From Chthoniobacteraceae bacterium (GTDB lineage: Bacteria; Verrucomicrobiota; Verrucomicrobiia; Chthoniobacterales; Chthoniobacteraceae): 31,953 bases of DNA. The stretch is taken from NCBI GenBank assembly GCA_031409655.1, contig JANNXQ010000279.1:1-31953 (forward strand), read 5' to 3'. Shown here piece by piece: positions 783 to 22,446 of the stretch. The notes under the pieces were generated by a model. That model was not told the DNA's origin, searched no databases, and saw only the letters and a list, made by a program, of their open reading frames with translations. Both the position numbers and the translations under genes were made by a program. The first letter of the stretch is position 1. Every line of letters begins with the position of its first letter.

Positions 783-2921
783 TCACCGCGTCAGGAACGG
801 CACATACTCCGGGATCTCGCCGGTCAGCACCCGGGCGAGGATGCGAAATTGCAGTTCGATCGCACGACGGTAGCTCACTTTGTAGTCGAAAACGGGATGC
901 GTGATGAGCGAGTTCATCCGCTGCTCGAAGCATTGGAAGAATTGCTTCCTCCCGGCGGCATTGAGATTCACGGCGCGGCCCGCAGAGACGAAATCCCTGG
1001 TCGTGACAAAGCGATTGTTGATCGCCGTGAGCACTGCGGACTCTGCGATGAGCGGGCGGAATTCCTCCATCACATCCAGCGCCAGCGCGGGCCGGCCGTG
1101 GCGTGGCTGATGGTAAAAGCCGACGTAGGGATCGAGTCCGACGGCCATCGCAGCGAGCGTGCATTCCTTCGCGAGCAGACTGTAGGCGAGCGAAAGCAGC
1201 GCGTTCACCGGGTCGGTCGGCGGACGGCGATTGCGCGTGGTGAAGTCGAACGTGAACGCCACCTCCGGCGCCGCCGCTGGCTCGGGCTGCGCGATCCCTT
1301 CCAGAAAATCCTCCTCCTCGATCCGCTCCCGTATCATCCCGCCGAACTGCTGAAAATACACGCTCGCCGCCGCGCCTTCCACGCCGAGCAACTCCTCCAG
1401 CGAGCGCGTCGCCAGCGCATCCTCGCGCGCCTGGCCGAGCCGCAGCTTCGTGCGCTCCGGCGGCTCCACATGATTGCGCATGAAGAGCACCCGATGATTG
1501 TGAATCTTCCCGCGCACGAACTGCTGCGCCAGCCGCAGACAGCTCGCCGGGTCCGCCGCGTGCCGGAATTGCTCGATCCGCAGCAGCACATTTTTCAGCG
1601 AATGCCCGCGCGTCATCCCGTAAAACCAGCCGCCCATGGAAAACCAGGTCACCGGGATGTCCGCGTCGCAGAGCCGCTGCACCGCCTGCGTGGACATCTG
1701 GATATTGCCGAACAGCGCGACGTGGCAGACATCCATCACCCGCACCTCCTCCACGAGCCGGTCTTTCTCCTTCACCTTCAGCACCGCATCATTGCAGCCC
1801 ACGCGATAGCCTTGGGTATTGAGATAAAGCGCCCGCTTTTCGTCGCGCGGCGCGATCAGGCGGCGGGGCGGGGAGGAAGGTGAATGGTGATCGGTGATTG
1901 GTGATTGGTTGGTGCCGTCTCGGTCCTCGGCTGGCGCAAACTTTTCCACCGTCGGGATCGAGAGCATCCGCGTCTCATCCGGCAGACACACCGGCGCGAG
2001 CGAACACCGCGCGCACTTCGGCGAATCGACCAGCGGCGGCGGAATCGGCCCCTTCGCACAGACCCGTGCCTCGGCGATTTTGGAAATGACCCACGCCTCC
2101 AGCTCCGGCGTCAGCTCCAGCGGCACGCGCTGCTTCGTCTTTCGGTAGTAAATGATCCCCGTATCGCAGGCGTAACCATTGTCCCGCAGCACCAGGCATT
2201 GCAGACCGAGCTGCATTTTATCCGCATCCCACAACTCCAGCCCGTCCGCGCCTTCGCGCGGCGCACCCACTTTGTAATCCACCGGCTGCACCGCCGCGAC
2301 ACTGCCATCCCGGCTCAATGTCGCCTCCACGAGATCCATCTTCGCCACCACCCCGAGCCGCTCCGACCCCAGCATCACTGAGCGCGAATGAATCTCGTCT
2401 CCATCGGCCACGGACTTCGCCTCAACTCCCTCACCCAGCGCGCTCGTCGCTTGCGGCAACGCACCCTTGCCCTTGTCCACCCGCGCATGCACCGCCGCGC
2501 CCTTCACCGTGTCCGCACTTTCCACGAAAACCCCTTCGACATGCTCGTAGTAAAAAAGCCGCGGACAATAGACGAACTCGTTCAACATCCGTGCCGGGAT
2601 CGACTCCGCCTGCTGCTCCACCTTCGGCGCATCTTCGTCCTCTCCGGTCGCTTCCAACTCCGCATCCTCCACTACCACGACCTCCACCGGCCTGTCCGGC
2701 GCATCCGCCGGCGCAGTCGGGAATGTGTCCGGCGGGACGCCTACCCTACCCTCGACGGGTGCTTCGGGCGGGACCGTTGCCTCGACCACACCGGCCTCGC
2801 CACCCGTCGCGGTAAACGCCTGCTGCACGACTTCGGAAAGCTGCTTCGCAAACAAATCCGGCCCGCCGTCTCCGCCTGAGCGGCGACGTCCTCCGCGTCC
2901 CGAACGATTTCTTTCACGCAT
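783..2921 (-). CDS. cas1: Cas4-Cas1 fusion (type I-G) with a ~105-aa low-complexity N-terminal extension
   Basis: Cas4 motifs (LNEFVYCPR, DYK, QLGLQ, CARCSLAPVC) followed by Cas1 motifs (LLGVEG, RNRRPPTDPVNALLSLAY, GFYH, LALDVMEEFRP). GGAG RBS precedes the ATG at 2921. Confidence 0.96.
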   Translation of the reverse strand: MRERNRSGRGGRRRSGGDGGPDLFAKQLSEVVQQAFTATGGEAGVVEATVPPEAPVEGRVGVPPDTFPTAPADAPDRPVEVVVVEDAELEATGEDEDAPKVEQQAESIPARMLNEFVYCPRLFYYEHVEGVFVESADTVKGAAVHARVDKGKGALPQATSALGEGVEAKSVADGDEIHSRSVMLGSERLGVVAKMDLVEATLSRDGSVAAVQPVDYKVGAPREGADGLELWDADKMQLGLQCLVLRDNGYACDTGIIYYRKTKQRVPLELTPELEAWVISKIAEARVCAKGPIPPPLVDSPKCARCSLAPVCLPDETRMLSIPTVEKFAPAEDRDGTNQSPITDHHSPSSPPRRLIAPRDEKRALYLNTQGYRVGCNDAVLKVKEKDRLVEEVRVMDVCHVALFGNIQMSTQAVQRLCDADIPVTWFSMGGWFYGMTRGHSLKNVLLRIEQFRHAADPASCLRLAQQFVRGKIHNHRVLFMRNHVEPPERTKLRLGQAREDALATRSLEELLGVEGAAASVYFQQFGGMIRERIEEEDFLEGIAQPEPAAAPEVAFTFDFTTRNRRPPTDPVNALLSLAYSLLAKECTLAAMAVGLDPYVGFYHQPRHGRPALALDVMEEFRPLIAESAVLTAINNRFVTTRDFVSAGRAVNLNAAGRKQFFQCFEQRMNSLITHPVFDYKVSYRRAIELQFRILARVLTGEIPEYVPFLTR
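1879..1906 (+). repeat. Four tandem heptamers GGTGA(A/T)(T/C) in the Cas4-Cas1 linker
   Basis: GGTGAAT GGTGATC GGTGATT GGTGATT; encodes QSPITDHHSP in the linker. Confidence 0.7.
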
Positions 2922-2969
2922 GGCAGTCTCCTGATCTTGCCGCTTCCATCCTTGGTAACGAACTGGCCT
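2891..2969 (-). repeat. csb2/cas4-cas1 junction, copy A (contains the real cas4-cas1 start)
   Basis: 2891-2932 matches 4471-4512 at 39/42 nt. Upstream reads GQFV on the minus strand, versus GLFV at the csb2 3' end. Confidence 0.85.
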
Positions 2970-3506
2970 TCATGATTTGTCCTCCTCGCGATGAAAGCCG
3001 ATCCGCGGCTTCGGCGGGTCCGGCGGCGGCAGCAGCAGCGGACGCAGTTTTTGAATCACATCCCGCAGCGCGCTGTCGTGGCTGAGCAGCGTCTTCTCGA
3101 TCTTCTGCAACCGCGCTTCGAGCGTCGCATCGGCCAGCAATTCCCGCCGCATCTTCACGAACGCCCGCACCACATACACACTCATCGCCACCGCCCGCTC
3201 GCTACTCAGAATCGTCGCCGCCATGATCGCCCCGTGCTCGGTGAAGACCAAAGGAAGGTATTTGCGGTGCTGCCCGCGCCCTGCGGTCTTTAAGGTTCCA
3301 ATTTGGCACCTTAAAGAAGCCCATTCCTCCTTGGTGAGCTGGAAAACAAAATCGGCAGGAAAGCGCGCCGCATTCCGGCTGATTGCCCGATTGAACTGCT
3401 TCGTCTCCACGCCATAAATAATCGCCAGATCGCTATCGAGCATCACGGACTCGCCGCGGATGGCAAAGATGCGGGGGACAATGGCTGACAGCTCGTCCGG
3501 CTTCAT
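2970..3506 (-). CDS. ORF6N-domain DNA-binding protein
   Basis: IRGESVMLDSDLAIIYGVETKQFNRAISRNAARFPADFVFQLT...YLPLVFTEHGAIMAATILSSERA is typical of ORF6N proteins. Start placed at MKPDELS (3506), not 3701. Confidence 0.88.
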   Translation of the reverse strand: MKPDELSAIVPRIFAIRGESVMLDSDLAIIYGVETKQFNRAISRNAARFPADFVFQLTKEEWASLRCQIGTLKTAGRGQHRKYLPLVFTEHGAIMAATILSSERAVAMSVYVVRAFVKMRRELLADATLEARLQKIEKTLLSHDSALRDVIQKLRPLLLPPPDPPKPRIGFHREEDKS

Positions 3507-3526
3507 GATTCTTTGGTCACTGGGTT

Positions 3527-3715
3527 CTACGGCATCGTGTGCCTCCCGCCGGGCAAACTTGAGGTTGCAATTTGTGACATCAAGTCTGTCCACTCCTGAG
3601 CAGTAAGCTGAAATGCAAAGTCCAATGAGGGCACGGCATCGGCCATCTTTAGGATCACAGTCTGTGACCTTAAAGCCACGCTCCCTTGAGCATCGGACCA
3701 ACTTTTTTCACACAT
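3527..3715 (-). pseudogene. Chimeric 62-aa ORF: degenerate cas4-cas1 start fused to ORF6N fragments
   Basis: MCEKSWS resembles MRERNRS. LRSQTVILK and DFAFQLTAQEWTDLMSQIATSS resemble DFVFQLTKEEWASLRCQIGTLK of the adjacent ORF6N gene. Confidence 0.65.
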
Positions 3716-3783
3716 GGCAGTTTCCTCTTTGCTTGCCGCTTTCTAGGCGTGCCCGGCAGGAATGCACAGCCCCAATCCAAAGG
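3690..3783 (-). repeat. csb2/cas4-cas1 junction, copy B (diverged)
   Basis: GCAGGAATGCACAGCCCCAATCCAAAG versus csb2 GCAGGAACGAACAGCCCCAATCCGAAG (FGLGLCIPA vs FGLGLFVPA). Also minus-strand GAGGAAACTGCCATGTGTGAAA versus GAGGAGACTTCCATGCGTGAAA. Confidence 0.8.
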
Positions 3784-3824
3784 ACGAAAACATCCATCGT
3801 CGCGGAGTGCCTCCAATCCTCAGC

Positions 3825-3861
3825 TTGACCCGTGCATACAACAGAGGCATCAGTGTATGCA
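3825..3861 (+). promoter_or_regulatory. vapBC promoter/operator
   Basis: TTGACC at 3825-3830. Perfect inverted repeat TGCATACA (3833-3840) / TGTATGCA (3854-3861) overlapping the start codon, as expected for TA autorepression. Confidence 0.65.
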
Positions 3862-4067
3862 TGAGAACGACGCTGAACATTGACGACTCCCTGCTCGCGC
3901 AAGCCGGCGAATACACCGGCGAGACCGAAAAAACCGCGCTCGTCCGCATGGGATTGGAAGCACTGATCCAGCGTGAATCGGCCCGGCGTCTCGCTGCCCT
4001 TGGTGGCACCATGCCATCCCTCACCGTGCCTCCACGCCGCCGTCCGGAGACCAAGCGGCGCAAATGA
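3861..4067 (+). CDS. vapB: VapB-type antitoxin
   Basis: MRTTLNIDDSLL RHH-like N-terminus; ATGA overlap with the PIN toxin. Start moved from 3762 to 3861. Confidence 0.9.
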   Translation: MRTTLNIDDSLLAQAGEYTGETEKTALVRMGLEALIQRESARRLAALGGTMPSLTVPPRRRPETKRRK

Positions 4068-4429
4068 TCCTCGCCGACACGTCGGTCTGGGTGCAGCACT
4101 TCCGGCGCGGGGTGCCGGACTTTGCGACGGCCCTGCAAAACGGCCAGATTTCCATCCACCCCGTCGTCCTCGGCGAGCTGGCGAGCGGCAATCTGGCCAG
4201 GCGCACCCAGACTCTGGCCGCACTGCGCAGTCTGCCGCGCACCAAAGCCGGCACCACCGAAGAATGCCTCGATTTCATCGAGACCCACACGCTCTACGGT
4301 CGCGGCATCGGTTGGAACGACCTCCAGTTGCTCGTCGCCGCCCGGCTCTCCGGCAACCCGCTCTGGTCGCTCGACACCCGTCTCACCGCCGCCGCGGTCG
4401 AACTGGGCGTGGCTCATTCCGCTCCCTGA
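4064..4429 (+). CDS. vapC: VapC PIN-domain toxin
   Basis: MILADTSVW, VLGEL, GIGWNDLQL and LWSLD carry the PIN acidic residues; 121 aa. Confidence 0.93.
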   Translation: MILADTSVWVQHFRRGVPDFATALQNGQISIHPVVLGELASGNLARRTQTLAALRSLPRTKAGTTEECLDFIETHTLYGRGIGWNDLQLLVAARLSGNPLWSLDTRLTAAAVELGVAHSAP

Positions 4430-4529
4430 CTTGCCGGCCACCGGCGAGCGATCGATTCGATCCCGCTCCGCTCCACGACCCGAACGATTTCTTTCACGCA
4501 TGGAAGTCTCCTCTTTTTCTGCCTGCCAT

Positions 4530-9306
<4,777 letters not shown>

Positions 9307-13243: not shown

Positions 13244-14251
13244 TCACCCGGCCGCAAGGACCGCCTCGGCCACTCGCCGGATTCGTCGTTTCAGCTCCGC
13301 CGGCTCCAGCACCCTCGCGTGCTGGCCCCAGCTCAGCACCCAGCGCTCGATCTCCTCCAAACTGCCGAGCTCGATACTCATCTCCAGGTCGCCGCCCGGC
13401 AACGTCCGCATTTTCTGCGTCGCATGCCATTGCCGCTCGGAGACCAGCCGCGCGGCGAACGCATCAAAGCGAACTTTCACCCGATGCCGGGCCTTTCCCT
13501 TAAACACGCCAAAGCTGTCCCCAAGATGATTTGCGATGGAGAAATCGGCCGGACGCAGGAAGCGCATTCCGGTGTTCTTGACTGTGCGCATCCGGGGCAT
13601 GGCAAAGGTCCGGAGTTGCTGGCGGGCCAGGTCCAAACCGAAGAGATACCACTGATTTTCGACGCAACCGAGGTGATAGGGCTGCACCCGGCGGGCCTCG
13701 TGCCGGGCACTGCCGAGCTTCTTGTATTCGAAGGCCAGCTCGTGGGAATCGAGCACCGCCCGGCTCACCGTCTCGAACAATTCGAGATCCGCCACGCTGG
13801 TGCCGAGCCCGCGGAACGAAATCGCCGAATCCACATCGCCCCACTGGAACCCGATCCGGTCCTTCAACCCTTCAGTGATCTTCTCGAAGGCGGTCCGCAA
13901 TGGCTTTTCGAAGGACGTGCCCCGGTATTGTTCCAACGCCTTTTGTGCCACGAAGAGGGCCACGACTTCGCCCTCGGAGACCTCGATGCTCGGGAAACTC
14001 GTGACCGGCTCCGTGTAAATGAAACCGAAATGGAGCTGGTCGTATGCGATCGGCAGTCCGAGCTGATCGCGCATGAAGTCGATGTCGCGCTGGATGGTCT
14101 TGGTTGAGACCTCCAACTCGTCGGCCAGCTTCCGGCAATTCGGGAAACTCCCCGCCTGAAGCTGCTGATGCATCTGGAGCATCCGGGCCAGCGGCGGCCG
14201 GGAGAATTGCTGGATCTTGGGGGAGCGAACTCGGGATCTCGAACGCGACAT
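13244..14251 (-). CDS. HTH-WYL-WCX transcriptional regulator (YafY/PafC-like)
   Basis: LADELEVSTKTIQRDI winged HTH, VQPYHL...WYLFG...LRTF WYL core, and WVLSWG...VLEP WCX domain. Confidence 0.95.
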   Translation of the reverse strand: MSRSRSRVRSPKIQQFSRPPLARMLQMHQQLQAGSFPNCRKLADELEVSTKTIQRDIDFMRDQLGLPIAYDQLHFGFIYTEPVTSFPSIEVSEGEVVALFVAQKALEQYRGTSFEKPLRTAFEKITEGLKDRIGFQWGDVDSAISFRGLGTSVADLELFETVSRAVLDSHELAFEYKKLGSARHEARRVQPYHLGCVENQWYLFGLDLARQQLRTFAMPRMRTVKNTGMRFLRPADFSIANHLGDSFGVFKGKARHRVKVRFDAFAARLVSERQWHATQKMRTLPGGDLEMSIELGSLEEIERWVLSWGQHARVLEPAELKRRIRRVAEAVLAAG

Positions 14252-14317
14252 GTCTCTTCGGGTAACGGGGGCGTTTCACCGCCTCAAGAAAAATACGGAA
14301 AAGAAAACTTCCGGGTG

Positions 14318-14332
14318 GGACAGCATTTGTCC
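14318..14332. promoter_or_regulatory. Candidate WYL-regulator operator 2 (GGAC-N7-GTCC)
   Basis: GGACAGCATTTGTCC, about 66 nt upstream of the WYL start; same half-sites and spacing as operator 1. Confidence 0.55.
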
Positions 14333-14598
14333 GGGAGGCCGTGCTGAACTCGACCCTTGGTTGAAAAACCTGGCTCTGGGAGATGGCACGAAGGCCTCAC
14401 GGAATGCAGGAGGAACCCGGAGCCAGGCTTTTCGTGGCAACAACCTTAACCATTTCCACCTGAAAACTTCCGAAGGCGGCGCGCTCAGGCCCGATGCTCC
14501 TTCACCTACCGACAGCGCCAAACTGCATGAACACGGCGAGAATGCTGAACTTCGCTATCGATTCAAGGCGCTACTCGCTCGCATTCGCAACGATGCGC

Positions 14599-14725
14599 TC
14601 ACGCCTTTGCGTCTTTCATCCGCTGCTCCAATTCCTCCAGAGTCATCCGCCGGTGTCGCACTTCGGTTTCCAATTCAACCTTGTTCCCATAGAGCTTCGG
14701 CATGTGCGCGGCCAGCAGGCGGATG
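14599..14725 (-). pseudogene. 3' fragment of the TerS-like gene (duplicate of 17312-17438)
   Basis: 14608-14725 matches 17321-17438 at 113/118 nt; encodes IRLLAAHMPKLYGNKVELETEVRHRRMTLEELEQRMKDAKA*. Confidence 0.9.
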
Positions 14726-15390
14726 CGCCCGTGGAAGGGTTCGAGCACTTCGACGAGGAGTTTGACGAGCTGGTGGGCGTGTAGAATTGATGAGTGCCTC
14801 CGCGCTCACCCTACGGGCTGCCACAGCAGTCGATCTCGCTCCGCTCGGTTCGCCGCCTTTCTGCCCCTCGCTGATGGCGAAGGTGCCGAGGAAGTATTCG
14901 TAGATTTTGCCGAAGGCGTCGCCGCTCAGTCCGCTGGGGATGGAGGAGAGCGTCTTGAGCAGCTCGGCGAGCAGGCGGGAATCGAAGATCTGGTAGCTCT
15001 TCGGCAGGACGCCGGCCATGTGGGGATTGTCCCGCTCGATGGCCCGCATGGCGTCGTTGACGGCGAGGCCGATGTCGGTGCCTTCGGGGAGATTCAGCAG
15101 GTGCGCGTAGCGCGTGGTGGCGGGCAGATAAAGGATGGCCTCGGCGTGGTAGGCCGCGGGGTCGTCCATGCGCGTGCCACGGAGGGAGGAGCCGGCGGCT
15201 TTTTCGAGTTCAGCCCGGTGCTTGGCAAGCGATCCTCGGCAAAGCGCAGAAAGATGAGGCCGAGGACGGGCTCGGAGTATTCCGATTGTTTCAGCCTTGC
15301 GCCGGCCCAGAGCTGATTGGCAGCGGCCCAGAGGCGCTTTTCGAGCGCGTCGTTGGCAGCGTCCTTTTCCGAGGGGGCAATCCAGATCAT
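14722..15390 (-). pseudogene. hsdM: Truncated, frameshifted type I restriction-modification methyltransferase subunit
   Basis: [49 protein letters not shown] and VKLLVEVLEPFHGRI lie in several frames. Ends before the DPACG motif. Confidence 0.9.
14787..14848. mobile_element. 60-bp structured mini-insertion with a 2-bp TT duplication in hsdM
   Basis: Splits GGCGAA|TTCTAC (GGE|FYTP) exactly; contains three short hairpins. Confidence 0.7.
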
Positions 15391-15547
15391 TCATTGCAGT
15401 AGGAAAAATCCACCGCTGGGAGGCGAGCACAGCGCTCGACGCCCCGCAATGGCGTGCAATGTGCCGGGACGGCGTGCAAACTGGCGGATGGCGCGGATTC
15501 CGCCAGCCTGCTCACAACCCCTATCGGTCCAGCCCCCCAACGTCGCC

Positions 15548-17965: not shown

Positions 17966-18069
17966 GAGACAGAGACTTTCCCGCCCGTATAGAATACGGG
18001 GCGGGAGAGTCTGTCTCATTCCTCGCGGTGTGAGACTCTCCCGCTGCCTGGGAAAGTCGGGAAAGTCTC
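17966..18069. other. Putative replication origin (palindrome plus iterons)
   Basis: Imperfect inverted repeat 17966-18017 centred on CCCGTATAGAATACGGG. Five GACT(T/C)TCCC units in both orientations, immediately after the helicase stop. Confidence 0.6.
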
Positions 18070-19591
18070 ATCCATTCACCACTGCAAGCCCTTGCTGGTG
18101 GAGGGAAATCCTCACTTCGGCGTTTGTTCCACTGCGATTTATACGCCAGACGAAAGCCTGCTCGTTCTTAATCAACCGCTTGAGCGTCTCTTCGGCACCA
18201 TGCTTCGAAAAACCTCGCTCCCGCGCCGCCTTTATCAGTTCCGTCTTTGGGCTTGCTCCATCTGTCGGGATGAGCGCCTTCAGGTCCGCATCCGTCTTCA
18301 CTGGCTTCCGGGCTTTCTTTGCGGCTGTAGCGGCTTCTAAAGCCTCCATGTCCTCATCCGTTGCCAAACGCCAATAGAGCCCGTCTGATGCGTGGCAATA
18401 GTGCCGCATCGTCTCGCGCACGCCTTTCTCGGTCACCCATCCGATGCGTCCTCCACGTTTGGCAGCAATGAATCGGAAAACGTGCGGGGCATGTGTCGGG
18501 TCAATCACCAGTATAGCCCTTGCCCAATTGGTGACATCGGCACTACCCGCGCCGGCATACATCCAATCGCTGCCACGCCAGCCCGATGTGTCGCGGTTTG
18601 TTACTTTTGGGGTATGATGATTCAGCACACAGGCCACGGCACGCTTCGCGAGAATCGGATTGAGACCTTTCCTCAGAAACGCCGCCGTGCTTTCGGCGTC
18701 GCTTACGTCGGCGCCGAGATACGCCATGAAAGGGTCAATCCGCAATAGATCGAACTTCCCACTGCATAACCTTGAATCGACATAGGTCAGAAATTCCGCG
18801 CCAGTACGCCCGCAGTCGGTCTCGTAGAATACCCTGTGACGGACGGCTTCGCGATCTTCATCGGACAGACGCAGGCCGGAACAAACACCCTCCCTCATTT
18901 CGACAAGATCCCCATCGTCATTCTCGGCCTGAATGCAGAGTATGCGCAGCGGCCGTTGAGGGCGAATGCCAAAAGCTTCACGGCCCAGCGCCCATAGTAA
19001 ATCCTGCTGTACGCTCGCAGACGATTTGCCGATGCCCGATGGGCCTACGAATAGCATCGACCCGCCAACGCATAGGAACCGGCAGCCGAGAATGGTCTTT
19101 TCCGACTCCAGCGTGCAGGATTCGATGTCCATCAGGGCGCGCGGTGGAGCAATGCGAGCGGCGCTCTCACGGAGTTTCTCGACACTCTGCATCGCATTGT
19201 CAAAGGCAGAGAAGCCCTCTCCGGACACGATCTTCTCGCTGAGTTCTTTCGCAGTCCGTATCTGCTCACGATGTATCCACTTGTCGCGGATCCTGTCGAG
19301 GTAGTACCTCGCTGCCGGTATTCCTGGCGCAGCCTCGTCAATCAGTGCGTGAATACCCACCGCACCGCCGACTCTGGCAAGTTGGTCGCGCTCAGTTAAC
19401 AAGTTGAGCACTGAATGCGGAATGAGAGCCCCCCCCTCGCTGGCGACATCGACGATTGCTTGCAATACGAGATTGAGTGGCTCGCTAAAATAGTCGGGCG
19501 AAACCTCGGCCGATAACTCCGCAAAAAGCTGAGCCCGGAACAACGATCCGAGGACAGCCCGCTCCGCGATAACGTCAAAGAATGATTTCAT
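18068..19591 (-). CDS. RepA/AAA_25-family helicase with a DnaB-like N-terminal domain
   Basis: AERAVLGSL N-terminus, Walker A GPSGIGKS, IQAEND, LLRIDPF, NHHTPK, AGSADVTNWARA. Start placed at MKSFF (19591). Confidence 0.85.
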   Translation of the reverse strand: MKSFFDVIAERAVLGSLFRAQLFAELSAEVSPDYFSEPLNLVLQAIVDVASEGGALIPHSVLNLLTERDQLARVGGAVGIHALIDEAAPGIPAARYYLDRIRDKWIHREQIRTAKELSEKIVSGEGFSAFDNAMQSVEKLRESAARIAPPRALMDIESCTLESEKTILGCRFLCVGGSMLFVGPSGIGKSSASVQQDLLWALGREAFGIRPQRPLRILCIQAENDDGDLVEMREGVCSGLRLSDEDREAVRHRVFYETDCGRTGAEFLTYVDSRLCSGKFDLLRIDPFMAYLGADVSDAESTAAFLRKGLNPILAKRAVACVLNHHTPKVTNRDTSGWRGSDWMYAGAGSADVTNWARAILVIDPTHAPHVFRFIAAKRGGRIGWVTEKGVRETMRHYCHASDGLYWRLATDEDMEALEAATAAKKARKPVKTDADLKALIPTDGASPKTELIKAARERGFSKHGAEETLKRLIKNEQAFVWRINRSGTNAEVRISLHQQGLAVVNG

Positions 19592-19775
19592 CGCTGCGCG
19601 TATCCCCCTCGAAAAGAGGGGCGAACTGCTGCTTCGCTCCCGCCGAACCAAAGGGCCAGTGCAGCAAGAGTACGTCCATTCCGAGCAATTGAAGGAGACG
19701 TGCCACCCTTGGCCCCGCATGGAGCGGACACACTTCTTCCTTGGCGCGGTGATTGCCATTGTGTAGCTTTTTCAT
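19575..19775 (-). CDS. Small hypothetical protein, possibly a remnant primase-polymerase N-terminus
   Basis: Between xis and the helicase, overlapping the helicase start. LLGMDVLLLHWPFGSAGAK weakly resembles Prim-Pol N-termini. Confidence 0.4.
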   Translation of the reverse strand: MKKLHNGNHRAKEEVCPLHAGPRVARLLQLLGMDVLLLHWPFGSAGAKQQFAPLFEGDTRSDEIIL

Positions 19776-19838
19776 CGTAGTTTCTTCAAAAGCCGTTCCC
19801 AAACTTGCCAGCGCGGGAGCGGCTTTTGCGTGGTTGGG

Positions 19839-20069
19839 TTAGTCGTCGCTTCGGTCAGGAATCTTGTGGGTTTTGGCAAACTCCCCGGCGGCTACGCGGC
19901 GCTCGAAGTCTGCGATCGCCTCGCGATGTACGTACAAACGTCCGCAGATATTTTGGGTCGCGATCCAGCCGCGTTTGCGCCAGCGCCATCCGGTCGCCGG
20001 GGTCTTGCCGATCGCCTCCAGCCATTTCTCGTATGAAACGAGGTTGCTTGTCGTGTTTTGGTCAGTCAT
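19839..20069 (-). CDS. Excisionase-like HTH protein
   Basis: 76 aa; IGKTPATGWRWRKRGWI...GRLYV winged HTH; follows the integrase. Confidence 0.75.
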   Translation of the reverse strand: MTDQNTTSNLVSYEKWLEAIGKTPATGWRWRKRGWIATQNICGRLYVHREAIADFERRVAAGEFAKTHKIPDRSDD

Positions 20070-20234
20070 GGCACGCACATGCGACCCGCCACGCGTGTGT
20101 CGAGACTAAACTTTCACAAACTTCACGTCGCCCTCCGTCCGCGAATGCCGCGTTCAACTCGCGCTGCTATTGGCAGGCCTGGAGTTCAGATCAAACTCCC
20201 GCGCAATCTCAAAGCGGCCGGGGATTGCCAGGCG

Positions 20235-21464
20235 TCAGCGCTCAGTCTGCGCTTCTGGCAGGGCCGCAATCCCACCGTCCGCCACCTGCGGGAACGTCAC
20301 GATGGACGGACTGAAAACCAACCGCGCGGCCATGTCCCGCTTATGACCGTCCAGCAAGTGGGAATAGACTTTGCACAACAGCACCCCGCCATCCTGATGC
20401 CCAAGCCACTCGGAGATGGTCTTGAAATCAATGCCGGCCATGACCGCTCGCGAGGCGAAATAATGCCGCAGGTCGTGGAAACCCACCCAAGGCAACTCTG
20501 CTAGTTTGCGCGCCAGCTTGAACGAATCCCGTAAAGACGTGGCCGGAATGTCCGTTGAACCACGTTGGGGGCTGGGAAACAGCCAAACCGTGTCTGGAGC
20601 ACGCCGGGCAAACATCTCCCGCAGATGCCGCTCAAGATCGGGATTGAAATCCACGTAGCGCGCCCGGCCATTCTTCGACGCCCCATTCGCCCCGATGCAC
20701 AGCAACCGACCGGTGAAATCCACATCCTCCCATTTGATTTGCAACGCCTCAGTGCAACGCGCTCCACAGAACGCCAGGAAGCGCAGGTAGTCGGCAAGCT
20801 GAGGGCCATTTTTGCTGCAAGTCCGGGCCGCGGCGAGCAGCACCTCGAAATCTGCCGGAGTCAGCGTGGGTCGCTTTGGTGAAATCGCCTTCAACGGCCG
20901 AAGTCCGACCGTGGGCAGGGCGACGAGCAAGCCATCGTCCACGGCGGATTTGAGCACATTACGCAACACGATCACGTCGAGATTGGCGGTGCGCGGTGCG
21001 GCCCCCGCCCGAATCCGAGCTTTCACGAAGGCGGCAATCATGGGTTTGGTCAGCTTGTCGATGCGCACATGCCCGAGGGTTTTGATCCACTGCGCCATTG
21101 AAGTCCGCTCCCGGCTCACGGTGCCGGCCTTCCGTCCGCTGGTATTCTGCTCGTGATACTCCAGATAGTCCCGCGCGTGATCCGCCAGACTCGGCTTCAC
21201 TCCCCCTTTGGGCAGCGCCCCCTCCCGAGCCTCGACGCGGCGCCGGGCCATCTCCACTTTCGCATCCGCCAGCGTCTGAGCGACGAGCGGAATCTTGCGC
21301 GCCGACTTCTCGCCCGGCACCCGCATCTGCGCGTAATAGCGTTCCCCGCGAATCCAGAGTCCCCGGACTTTCCGATTGCGGGCATCCCGTGCGCTGTTAA
21401 AACGCAGGCGATGACTTGTGACGTTGAGTTCCGCTTCTCTGCTTGCCGTTTCATGCGTTTGCAT
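20235..21464 (-). CDS. Tyrosine recombinase/integrase
   Basis: Catalytic R (CGARCTE), K (SKNGRAR), HDLRH, WLGH and Y (KVYSH). Start at 21464 or 21482. Confidence 0.95.
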   Translation of the reverse strand: MQTHETASREAELNVTSHRLRFNSARDARNRKVRGLWIRGERYYAQMRVPGEKSARKIPLVAQTLADAKVEMARRRVEAREGALPKGGVKPSLADHARDYLEYHEQNTSGRKAGTVSRERTSMAQWIKTLGHVRIDKLTKPMIAAFVKARIRAGAAPRTANLDVIVLRNVLKSAVDDGLLVALPTVGLRPLKAISPKRPTLTPADFEVLLAAARTCSKNGPQLADYLRFLAFCGARCTEALQIKWEDVDFTGRLLCIGANGASKNGRARYVDFNPDLERHLREMFARRAPDTVWLFPSPQRGSTDIPATSLRDSFKLARKLAELPWVGFHDLRHYFASRAVMAGIDFKTISEWLGHQDGGVLLCKVYSHLLDGHKRDMAARLVFSPSIVTFPQVADGGIAALPEAQTER

Positions 21465-21473
21465 ACCATCAAA

Positions 21474-21534
21474 GTAGAACAAAATGTAGAAACGGTCAAC
21501 CTGCGCGCCCGAAAAAAGTCATAAGCTACTGATA
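21474..21534. promoter_or_regulatory. Candidate att arm: GTAGAA direct repeats and an IHF-consensus site
   Basis: GTAGAA at 21474 and 21486. The minus strand of 21522-21534 reads TATCAGTAGCTTA, matching WATCAR-N4-TTR. Confidence 0.5.
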
Positions 21535-21544
21535 CTGAACACAC

Positions 21545-21629
21545 GGCGGTGTGATGGAATGGCAGACATACCGGACTTAAAATCCGTTGGGAGGTTTCTC
21601 CCGTGCGGGTTCGAGTCCCGCCACCGCCA
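21545..21629 (+). tRNA. tRNA-Leu(TAA)
   Basis: Acceptor stem GGCGGTG/CACCGCC plus discriminator A, anticodon loop CTTAAAA, long variable arm, GGTTCGAGTCC T-arm; CCA not encoded. Confidence 0.96.
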
Positions 21630-22446
21630 CTGACTTTCGGCCCAGGAGCCGCGCGAAGGGGCGGATCATCTGGCCGAAAAAATCGCGCGGGAATTCTTCC
21701 GGGATGCCGAAGTTCACCGGGACGCGGCCCGGCGGCATGTAGTAGGTGCAGAAGATGCGGTCCCAAAATGGCAGCAGGCCGGCGAAGTTTTTGTCCCAGG
21801 CTTCGCGGTCTTTCGAGTGGTGCCAGCGGTGGAAGACGGGCGAGGCGATGACGCTGCGCAGGGGGCCGTAGTCCCAGTCCACATTCGCGTGGAGCATGAT
21901 GGCGTAGAGCGTGAAGAAGGGCGCGGCGGAGAGGGTGGCGAAGGGATTGAAGCCGAGGAGGAGCAGCGGGGTGACTTGCAGGAACTTGTTCACCAGATCG
22001 TTCACCGGATGCACGCGCACGCTGCTCAGCCAGTCGAGATCCTCGGAACTGTGATGCACGGCGTGAAAGGGCCACCAACGACCTCGGTGAAAAAGCCGGT
22101 GCGTCCAGTAGCCGATGAGATCGGTGAGGGCGTAGATCTCGATGATTTGCAGCCAGAGCGGCTGGCGGGAGATCGGACCGAAGCCGCTGAAATCGCGGGA
22201 ACGCAGAGATTCGACATTTGCGACGCCGAACCAGATGAGCGCACCGAACGGCAGGATCAGGACGAAGCGCGTGAGGGCCTGAGTGACGAAAGGCGTAAGG
22301 AACCAGTAGCAGACATCGAGCAGCCAGCCGCGCCGGAAGTAGGGCCGATCGCGGCCCCTGCCCAAGAAGCGCTCCACGGCGAAGAAGAAGAGCGAAAGGA
22401 CAATCAGGGCCGCGGTGACACTGAGGAAGGTCTGGTCGGATTTCAT
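21577..22446 (-). CDS. Sterol desaturase / fatty acid hydroxylase family protein
   Basis: Histidine boxes YWTHRLFH, FHAVHHS and FHRWHHS; hydrophobic segments. Confidence 0.92.
   Translation of the reverse strand: MKSDQTFLSVTAALIVLSLFFFAVERFLGRGRDRPYFRRGWLLDVCYWFLTPFVTQALTRFVLILPFGALIWFGVANVESLRSRDFSGFGPISRQPLWLQIIEIYALTDLIGYWTHRLFHRGRWWPFHAVHHSSEDLDWLSSVRVHPVNDLVNKFLQVTPLLLLGFNPFATLSAAPFFTLYAIMLHANVDWDYGPLRSVIASPVFHRWHHSKDREAWDKNFAGLLPFWDRIFCTYYMPPGRVPVNFGIPEEFPRDFFGQMIRPFARLLGRKSVAVAGLEPAREKPPNGF

Follow-up and report, generated by a model that had tools for sequence, protein, structure and literature searches.

The stretch of DNA analyzed here (31,953 nt; the window) carries a type I-G CRISPR-Cas operon on its minus strand, in the order cas3, cas8g, cas7g, csb2, a cargo region, the cas4-cas1 fusion (cas4-1), cas2, and a CRISPR array at the contig end. 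The cargo lies between csb2 (Cas5/6g; 4530..6074, minus strand; PADLOC Cas56g profile, E = 2.1e-135), which is the upstream host gene of the junction, and the type I-G cas4-1 fusion (783..2921, minus strand), identified by Pfam and PADLOC profile matches. It consists of a vapBC toxin-antitoxin pair on the opposite, plus strand (3861..4429; PF09957 and PF01850, with the start read from the sequence) and a block that contains an ORF6N gene encoding 178 amino acids (2970..3506, minus strand). The cas4-1 gene follows directly downstream of the ORF6N gene after a gap of 48 nt. A sigma-70 promoter scan of positions 2800 to 4700 returned 0 promoters, against 0.3 expected, and so carries little information. 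The array (37-218) runs off the contig end; the assembly yielded only 2 spacers, neither of which matches ORF6N loci. Farther away, the window contains a WYL-domain regulator upstream of cas3 (13244-15430), with an ORF within that interval that we take to be an apparently broken type I methylase start, and a probable small integrated element (18068-21630) in which a tyrosine integrase and a DnaB/AAA_25 protein lie beside a tRNA-Leu. A 16-nt repeat of this tRNA-Leu was sought elsewhere in the window, and none was found.

The junction between the end of csb2 and the start of cas4-1 is present in the window in three diverged copies, all on the minus strand and identified by alignment. Copy A (2891..2950; repeat family D7) holds the functional ribosome-binding site and start of cas4-1. 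Copy B (3696..3782; families D4 and D9) is a diverged junction that matches the empty csb2/cas4-1 junction of a relative (locus L362) at 81% over 80 nt, and copy C (4471..4569; families D7 and D9) combines the 3' end of csb2 with an orphan copy of the cas4-1 start. Each cargo, vapBC as well as the ORF6N block, is bracketed by such copies; likewise, the 3' end of cas4-1 is repeated behind the ORF6N gene of another locus (L005, 3510-3605). A related-strain contig (X4 record 27) has an apparent empty junction, judged by eye from the match of its loose end to the end of csb2, and a genome of the same genus (L353) carries a broken ORF6N allele at the same junction position, among other cargo. We propose that the ORF6N gene rides as a passenger in host operons, entering where two genes meet, in this case csb2 and cas4-1. 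A CRISPR setting is not a fixed trait of the family: cas matches, scored with the type I-G queries of this window and over uneven flanks, were found at 10 of 271 loci. Its genes occupy gene junctions of many operons, including those for ATP synthase (L047), NADH dehydrogenase (L073), restriction-modification (L011 and L023), and Cas proteins. Such genes separate ATP synthase alpha from gamma, NADH dehydrogenase subunits from each other, hsdR from hsdM, and a methylase from a ResIII helicase, or they follow hisF and recA (loci L047, L073, L011, L023, L043, and L037).

The ORF6N protein matched Pfam PF10543 at 105.3 bits (cutoff, 27.8; E = 2.1e-30) and three PADLOC PDC-S05 profiles (E = 2.6e-49, 2.1e-44, and 2.4e-33), and its gene is the only ORF6N gene over the cutoff in the assembly, which is 94.9% complete. 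The profiles and a structure model describe a winged-helix-type domain, a long helix that is probably a coiled coil, and a proline-rich tail ending in RIGF. The tail (2970-3030, minus strand) is found in most homologues, with G and F invariant in 69 sequences; we presume that it resembles the ClpP-docking IGF loop. In the model, helices span residues 24 to 31 and 35 to 44, and the residues encoded by the palindrome described below form the end of a helix (59 to 69) and a poorly ordered loop. Comparison of the model to solved structures gave weak matches. The best Z score was 7.0, to an unrelated flagellar chain, and no match had a Z of at least 8. Dachshund was matched at Z 6.5 (RMSD, 3.6; 84 residues aligned), the pSK1 Par-DNA complex (8csh) at Z 5.3 (RMSD, 2.3; 53 aligned), and Mbp1 at Z 4.8 (RMSD, 3.4; 80 aligned), the last falling to Z 3.7 with the domain alone; many MerR-type and Dachshund chains scored at Z 3 to 6.5. 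Foldseek gave no match at E ≤ 0.001 (Ski had a probability of 0.95 at E 0.09), a sequence search of solved structures yielded nothing below E 0.58, and Pfam names only ORF6N. The modeled fold is thus consistent with, but only weakly matched to, Dachshund/Ski, pSK1 Par, RacA, MerR, and Mbp1. Because these matches are weak, we base the label "recognition helix," used below for the helix at residues 35 to 44, on its position and on covariation.

The first-pass annotation had picked out three related palindromes around this gene, and its positions, pair counts, and peptides all proved exact. The in-gene palindrome (3287..3317, centered on 3302) has 14/15 pairs and falls on codons S64 to K73, including the peptide LRCQIGTLK. 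A near upstream copy (3557..3585, center 3571; LMSQIATSS) has 11/14 pairs, and a far upstream copy (3647..3675, center 3661; LRSQTVILK) has 12/14. All three peptides are read on the minus strand. Single palindromes with at least 11/14 pairs are not rare, numbering 10 in the window and 2.3 per shuffled window; three within 400 nt occurred in 0/300 shuffled windows. As a control for coding constraint, each 11-codon block was recoded synonymously (20,000 draws, two codon tables). Recoded blocks averaged 3.9 to 5.6 of 13 pairs, versus 12, 10, and 11 observed for the in-gene, near, and far copies (p ≤ 0.0005, p = 0.007 to 0.009, and p ≤ 0.00035, respectively). A matrix built from homologous sites scored the three at 35.0, 32.3, and 27.7; in the rest of the 6.85-Mb assembly, the same matrix gave no score above 10.6 and thus no further site for a regulon. 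The three palindromes are genuine, and each exceeds what chance would produce.

This symmetry is a property of the family. At least 11/14 pairs about the same base were present in 72 of 79 homologues mapped in genome contigs. In a set of 76 ORF6N loci, the mean was 12.1/13 pairs versus 4.6 after synonymous recoding, and every one of the 76 exceeded its recoded, codon-shuffled expectation (p < 0.05). Four of 80 loci are missing from this set, namely one that was unmapped, one with a 9-nt shift, and two in another frame; all four have a site. When the sets were pooled, a site was present in 236 of 239 parsed ORF6N genes; in the first set, none was called in 3 of 166. Changes at most site positions are paired, as at position 4 (G-C in 44, A-T in 22, and C-G in 8). 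The site of 17 genes is read in another frame and encodes peptides such as VVTNCDHL; 34 of the 239 genes carry tandem in-frame copies. Pairing is uneven along the arms: the innermost pair is the least conserved (59/76 loci), and outer positions such as -10 are paired in 75/76.

The symmetry had been taken to imply selection at the DNA or RNA level. The DNA part holds, given that 76/76 loci lie above recoding; the RNA-hairpin part is not supported. Each of the three copies does fold as a hairpin (z = -2.1 to -4.8), and the poor conservation of the innermost pair is as expected in a 3-nt loop. However, mismatches on the mRNA strand (A-C, 85; G-U, 48; other, 83) reveal no wobble preference. Palindrome arms can also be copied onto each other by template switching, and such a mutational artifact could account for the paired outer positions, with the link between helix and site described below then reduced to hitchhiking. 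That link argues strongly against this, since columns in the linker carry ≤0.11 bits and the code crosses reading frames. Moreover, in genes with tandem copies, the better match to the code was the copy farther from the helix in 10 and the copy nearer to it in 4, with the two equal in 20. Taken together, an origin of the symmetry in an RNA hairpin or in arm copying is highly improbable, although arm copying may be the way in which a switch of helix and site is completed.

The proposal that the coding sequence may be the protein's own DNA site gains its main support from a code that connects the predicted recognition helix to the palindrome. The codons of this helix, E34 to S43, lie at 3378..3407 (minus strand). 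Across 176 genes, the positions of Q37 and R40 shared 1.12 and 1.38 bits of mutual information with the site type, defined by bases -5/-4, and the position of K36 shared 0.72 bits with base -7. Only three or four helix columns carried the signal: columns between helix and site had ≤0.11 bits and other columns ≤0.19. We drew classes by eye from a first set of 163 genes. Here, genes with E at helix position 7 had CG at -5/-4 in 51/54 cases, those with QA had CA in 55/62, those with R..QQ had TG in 14/14, those with K had TC in 5/6, and those with R had GC in 10/17 (CC in 2 and ties in 5). These classes were then fixed before the held-out genes were examined. There, 74 of 80 loci could be parsed, 3 duplicates and 1 gene without a rule were dropped, and 72 genes were tested. 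The code predicted 150/168 held-out half-sites correctly (shuffled mean, 62; maximum, 96; 5,000 shuffles), and 68 of the 72 genes had a fully cognate site. Noncognate half-sites made up 39/376 in the first set and 18/168 in the held-out set. A second rule concerns helix position 3: K went with G at -7 on both arms in 137/138 single-site genes, and R with A at -7 on one or both arms in 32/39. Kin among the genes mean that these counts are not independent.

The code was also followed between related genes and across reading frames. Among close relatives (at least 80% identity outside the helix and loop), 32/34 pairs of differing helix class each carry the predicted site type, although the pairs are not mutually independent. 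Two tandem paralogues at a Parabacteroides distasonis locus (L382) are 90% identical, and both helix and site have changed between them. The code holds in 16 of the 17 genes whose site lies in another frame; among named plasmid genes from three phyla, at least one arm is cognate in 6/6 and both are in 4/6. On trees built without the helix and loop, the site type changes 33 to 48 times, and joint changes add almost nothing to that number. The tree test typed 110/120 proteins, from the peptide alone; one contrast gave 6 same and 0 opposite of 7 independent pairs (p = 0.031), and the remaining contrasts were underpowered, with 1 to 5 supported pairs each (p = 0.06 to 1) and no opposite pair in any helix-site contrast.

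With its helix ETKQFNRAIS, the window protein is predicted to read G at -7 and GC at -5/-4. The two arms of its in-gene site carry G/G and GC/TC at these positions, leaving a single mismatch, at -5. The arms differ at -5 in the same way in 5/18 single-site R-class genes, so the lone mismatch falls at a position that appears to be tolerated, and the in-gene palindrome is the predicted cognate self-site. Such a code is most simply explained if the helix reads the site directly. We therefore envisage the ORF6N protein as a sequence-specific DNA binder whose target would be a 27- to 31-bp palindrome in its own gene. Two subunits, a dimer suggested by the dyad symmetry, would each place helix 35-44 on one half-site, with residue 36 setting base -7 and residues 37, 40, and 41 setting -5/-4 (E to CG, Q to CA, R..QQ to TG, R to GC, and K to TC), and alleles would have switched helix and site together, repeatedly. 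The code does not explain why the outer arm bases stay paired: positions such as -10 share ≤0.12 bits with any helix position.

The upstream copies have a different history. They lie in what had been described as an ORF6N fragment ORF. Its relationship to ORF6N is borne out, if below the PF10543 cutoff (17.7 bits; E = 0.0046); it is not a single fragment, however, being a 62-amino-acid chimeric pseudo-ORF (3527..3715, minus strand) in which a duplicated cas4-1 start is fused to two separate ORF6N remnants and which stops 20 nt before the ORF6N start. The near copy sits in a remnant of ~100 nt from a sister allele (DFAFQLT...GGRH; 85% over 68 nt to L324), and each of its arms is identical to the in-gene arm of other ORF6N genes (L009/L164 for one, L068 for the other). 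The far copy belongs to a short piece left from another allele (85% over 41 nt to L314). The resident protein is predicted to read GC at -5/-4; the upstream half-sites read CA/CA (far) and CA/TG (near, a hybrid), so that 0/4 are cognate. These alignments show the upstream copies to be remnants of sister alleles with other specificities. Among homologues in cas operons, the nearest (L004, L005, L272, and L008) are Q class, as is the broken allele of L353, which fits earlier CA-type occupants of this junction. By its predicted gene content, the assembly encodes no binder matching the upstream copies.

These observations bear on the suggestion that all three palindromes are operators of the resident protein, which would repress its own promoter and block cas4-cas1-cas2. 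In favor of it, the upstream copies lie 65 and 155 nt ahead of the start codon; variation at -5 is tolerated among R-class proteins; and cognate sites do stand just before the start elsewhere (L062, L383, and the group L331 to L350). Yet C at -4 is absent from all four upstream half-sites, whereas it is present in both in-gene arms and in 18/18 single-site R-class genes, and the upstream copies keep the coding-sequence flanks of other alleles. An operator role of the upstream copies is not supported, and we regard the three-site arrangement as quite improbable.

Copies flanking an ORF6N gene, just before its start, just after its stop, or in arrays, were found at 52/229 loci. In the first set, 26/88 of their half-sites were cognate versus 23.9 expected (p = 0.37); in the pooled sets, there was a mild enrichment (58/140 versus 43.2; p = 0.027), helped by one related group (L331 to L350) with a cognate site before the start. 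Because of this enrichment, flanking copies cannot in general be treated as mere relics. Both kinds exist, as predicted from the code: upstream cognate sites that are putative self-operators, as in L062 and in the Butyrivibrio gene L383 (where a perfect cognate site lies 29 nt before the start), and foreign sites. In L163 and L173, a decayed sister gene broken just behind an intact site lies upstream of a whole gene, a likely route to foreign flanking sites. Some loci (L074, offsets -432 to -350; L038; L327) have head-to-tail arrays of three or four site types before or behind the gene, including sites of the other-frame subfamily. At L382 (1910-3643), three tandem intact ORF6N genes precede leuS, and gene 2 is a mosaic whose first 47 residues are as in gene 3 and most of the rest as in gene 1.

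The first-pass annotation also proposed that crossover at the palindromes swaps variant segments into the gene. In a wider form of this reading, elements would integrate there as well, and the upstream copies would be a donor store or scars. The near copy is indeed a chimera of two arms that each occur unchanged in other genes, hybrid types are more common in flanking copies (14/70) than in genes (14/274), and the tandem in-frame copies noted above point the same way. However, chimeras of two valid arms numbered 4/20 versus 2.3 under random decay (p = 0.19), and an element interrupted the site in 0/14 broken loci. If only the site were exchanged, its match to a helix 90 nt away would be lost, yet the coupling is tight. 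The symmetry also runs to a 1-nt center, without an asymmetric overlap core, and the only integrase among 15 scanned window proteins is 17 kb away (20235-21482). Among 88 neighbors of homologues (88 of 155 heuristic neighbor ORFs were scanned), none belonged to the phage integrase family, and two were ISL3 transposases. No recombinant joints or base changes at the three sites appeared in contigs of 4 runs from one study, one run perhaps being the source of the assembly; contigs are a form of data that drops rare variants. A crossover function is thus improbable, although recombination at palindrome centers may play some part in turnover, and the near copy resembles a chimera formed in this way.

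We consider it highly likely, from the covariation, that the ORF6N protein binds its own in-gene palindrome and that the upstream copies are leftovers of sister alleles, bound weakly or not at all. If the binding is real, self-limitation is the likeliest use of the in-gene site, an interpretation that we favor with some reserve: the protein would throttle its own transcription as a roadblock, be held on its own gene, or both. As a passenger, the gene would have no promoter that it could reliably call its own, and a control element placed within its frame would be the only one that is never lost. A roadblock on cas4-cas1-cas2 is geometrically possible at the in-gene palindrome, which lies 381 nt ahead of the cas4-1 start on the same strand.

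The same binding could serve another purpose. Free ORF6N protein might harm invading DNA or the cell, with the cognate site acting as a DNA antidote and flanking foreign copies conferring orphan immunity to rival alleles; this is compatible with self-binding and differs from self-limitation in purpose. The window protein matches PDC-S05, one member of which cut T7 and T5 plating ~1,000-fold (10.1101/2024.09.26.614923), and a site of this kind is also present in RhuM genes. That member, however, had a RhuM domain and not ORF6N. BstA variants have cognate DNA elements overlapping their own gene (PMC8585504). The repeated switching of specificity suggests selection for rarity and is better explained by action against rivals or invaders; on the other hand, many ORF6N neighbors are housekeeping genes. 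Several pseudogenes break just after an intact site, and the 82/140 flanking half-sites that are noncognate still average 11.2/13 pairs, a value biased upward because the copies were picked by a symmetry threshold. Phages carry few members of this ORF6N subfamily (4 in 50,697 phage records; 0/57 and 1/83 candidate stretches in viral contigs). On balance, we see the antidote function as possible but doubtful.

Other gene families have in-gene palindromes at a fixed place. Counting at least 8 pairs with 10-bp arms, we found them in 26/30 RhuM genes (L195 to L224), 16/16 KilA-N genes (L225 to L240, of which L227 and L240 are from the window genome), and about 25/30 Bro-N genes (L242 to L271); these counts come from a best-palindrome search without the recoding control. 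The KilA-N sites have no central base. In RhuM, helix motifs seem to track the site, a hint from 12 parsed genes among the 30 loci. Two further genes of the window genome (C1:3974 and C11:20550), which we take to be DUF1016/YhcG, have a 12/13 palindrome in the motif FPICDALRHEL. The RhuM, KilA-N, and Bro-N sites suggest a general design of small mobile genes riding inside host operons. More speculatively, and in our estimate rather unlikely, ORF6N, RhuM, KilA-N, and Bro-N genes could be widespread one-gene self/non-self systems, each a weapon with a DNA antidote, in which the protein would be disarmed on an in-frame palindrome, specificities would diversify through a three-residue code, and rival sites would serve as orphan immunity. 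Here, the two foreign sites would let an incoming CA-type protein dock before the CRISPR adaptation genes.

Within the window, only the in-gene site would be expected to respond to the resident protein. For the family, the code offers a predicted base-by-base target where none was known for these very common proteins, and a natural residue-to-base code. It also points to DNA in which a single change affects the binding site and the protein reading it alike, and this site has outlasted changes of reading frame.

Self-sites inside genes and cognate protein-DNA pairs are both known kinds of system; the literature searched did not yield a mid-gene palindrome that is shared across a family, follows a predictive code, and has switched repeatedly. 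Nor were in-gene palindromes found described there, in titles and abstract openings, for the ORF6N, PDC-S05, KilA-N, Bro-N, RhuM, or DUF1016/YhcG families. The winged helices of MerR-type, Dachshund, and KilA-N-APSES proteins (pSK1 Par on its centromere [8csh], RacA, Xis, and Mbp1) appear to share the strand and helix arrangement over 53 to 84 residues, with a long helix behind the domain, but the matches to ORF6N have Z scores of only 3.5 to 6.5 and 4 to 18% identity. We know of no such binder that encodes its own site within its own DNA-binding domain. The product of lambda gene O binds origin iterons inside its own coding sequence, so that one stretch serves two codes. Those iterons are direct repeats that start replication, with one specificity; ORF6N differs in having one palindrome, no adjoining replication genes, and many switched specificities. 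The PADLOC PDC-S05 profiles match the window protein, but the antiviral member of that system carries a Virulence_RhuM domain, and the passages on its test mention no internal palindrome or self-binding (10.1101/2024.09.26.614923).

The closest precedent is BstA with its aba element (Owen et al. 2021). BstA is described as a putative DNA-binding abortive-infection protein with a KilA-N-like domain, whose aba element overlaps its own gene and whose variants form cognate pairs (PMC8585504). The likeness lies in a DNA-binding-type protein, a short element overlapping its own gene, and cognate variants, the last supported for ORF6N by covariation only. The two differ in layout: aba is described as 63 bp long, overlapping the gene start, with terminal direct repeats, whereas the ORF6N site is an inverted repeat in mid-gene, at codons 64 to 73. 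The bstA gene is reported beside a prophage repressor, and the window ORF6N gene lies inside a type I-G cas operon, its family being found in chromosomal operons. The main text of the BstA paper does not use the term "palindrom" and contains no demonstrated direct binding or residue-base code, whereas the proposed ORF6N code is readable from sequence (PMC8585504). If the parallel is true, the helix-site code would supply the missing physical basis for DNA-encoded self-immunity in defense genes.
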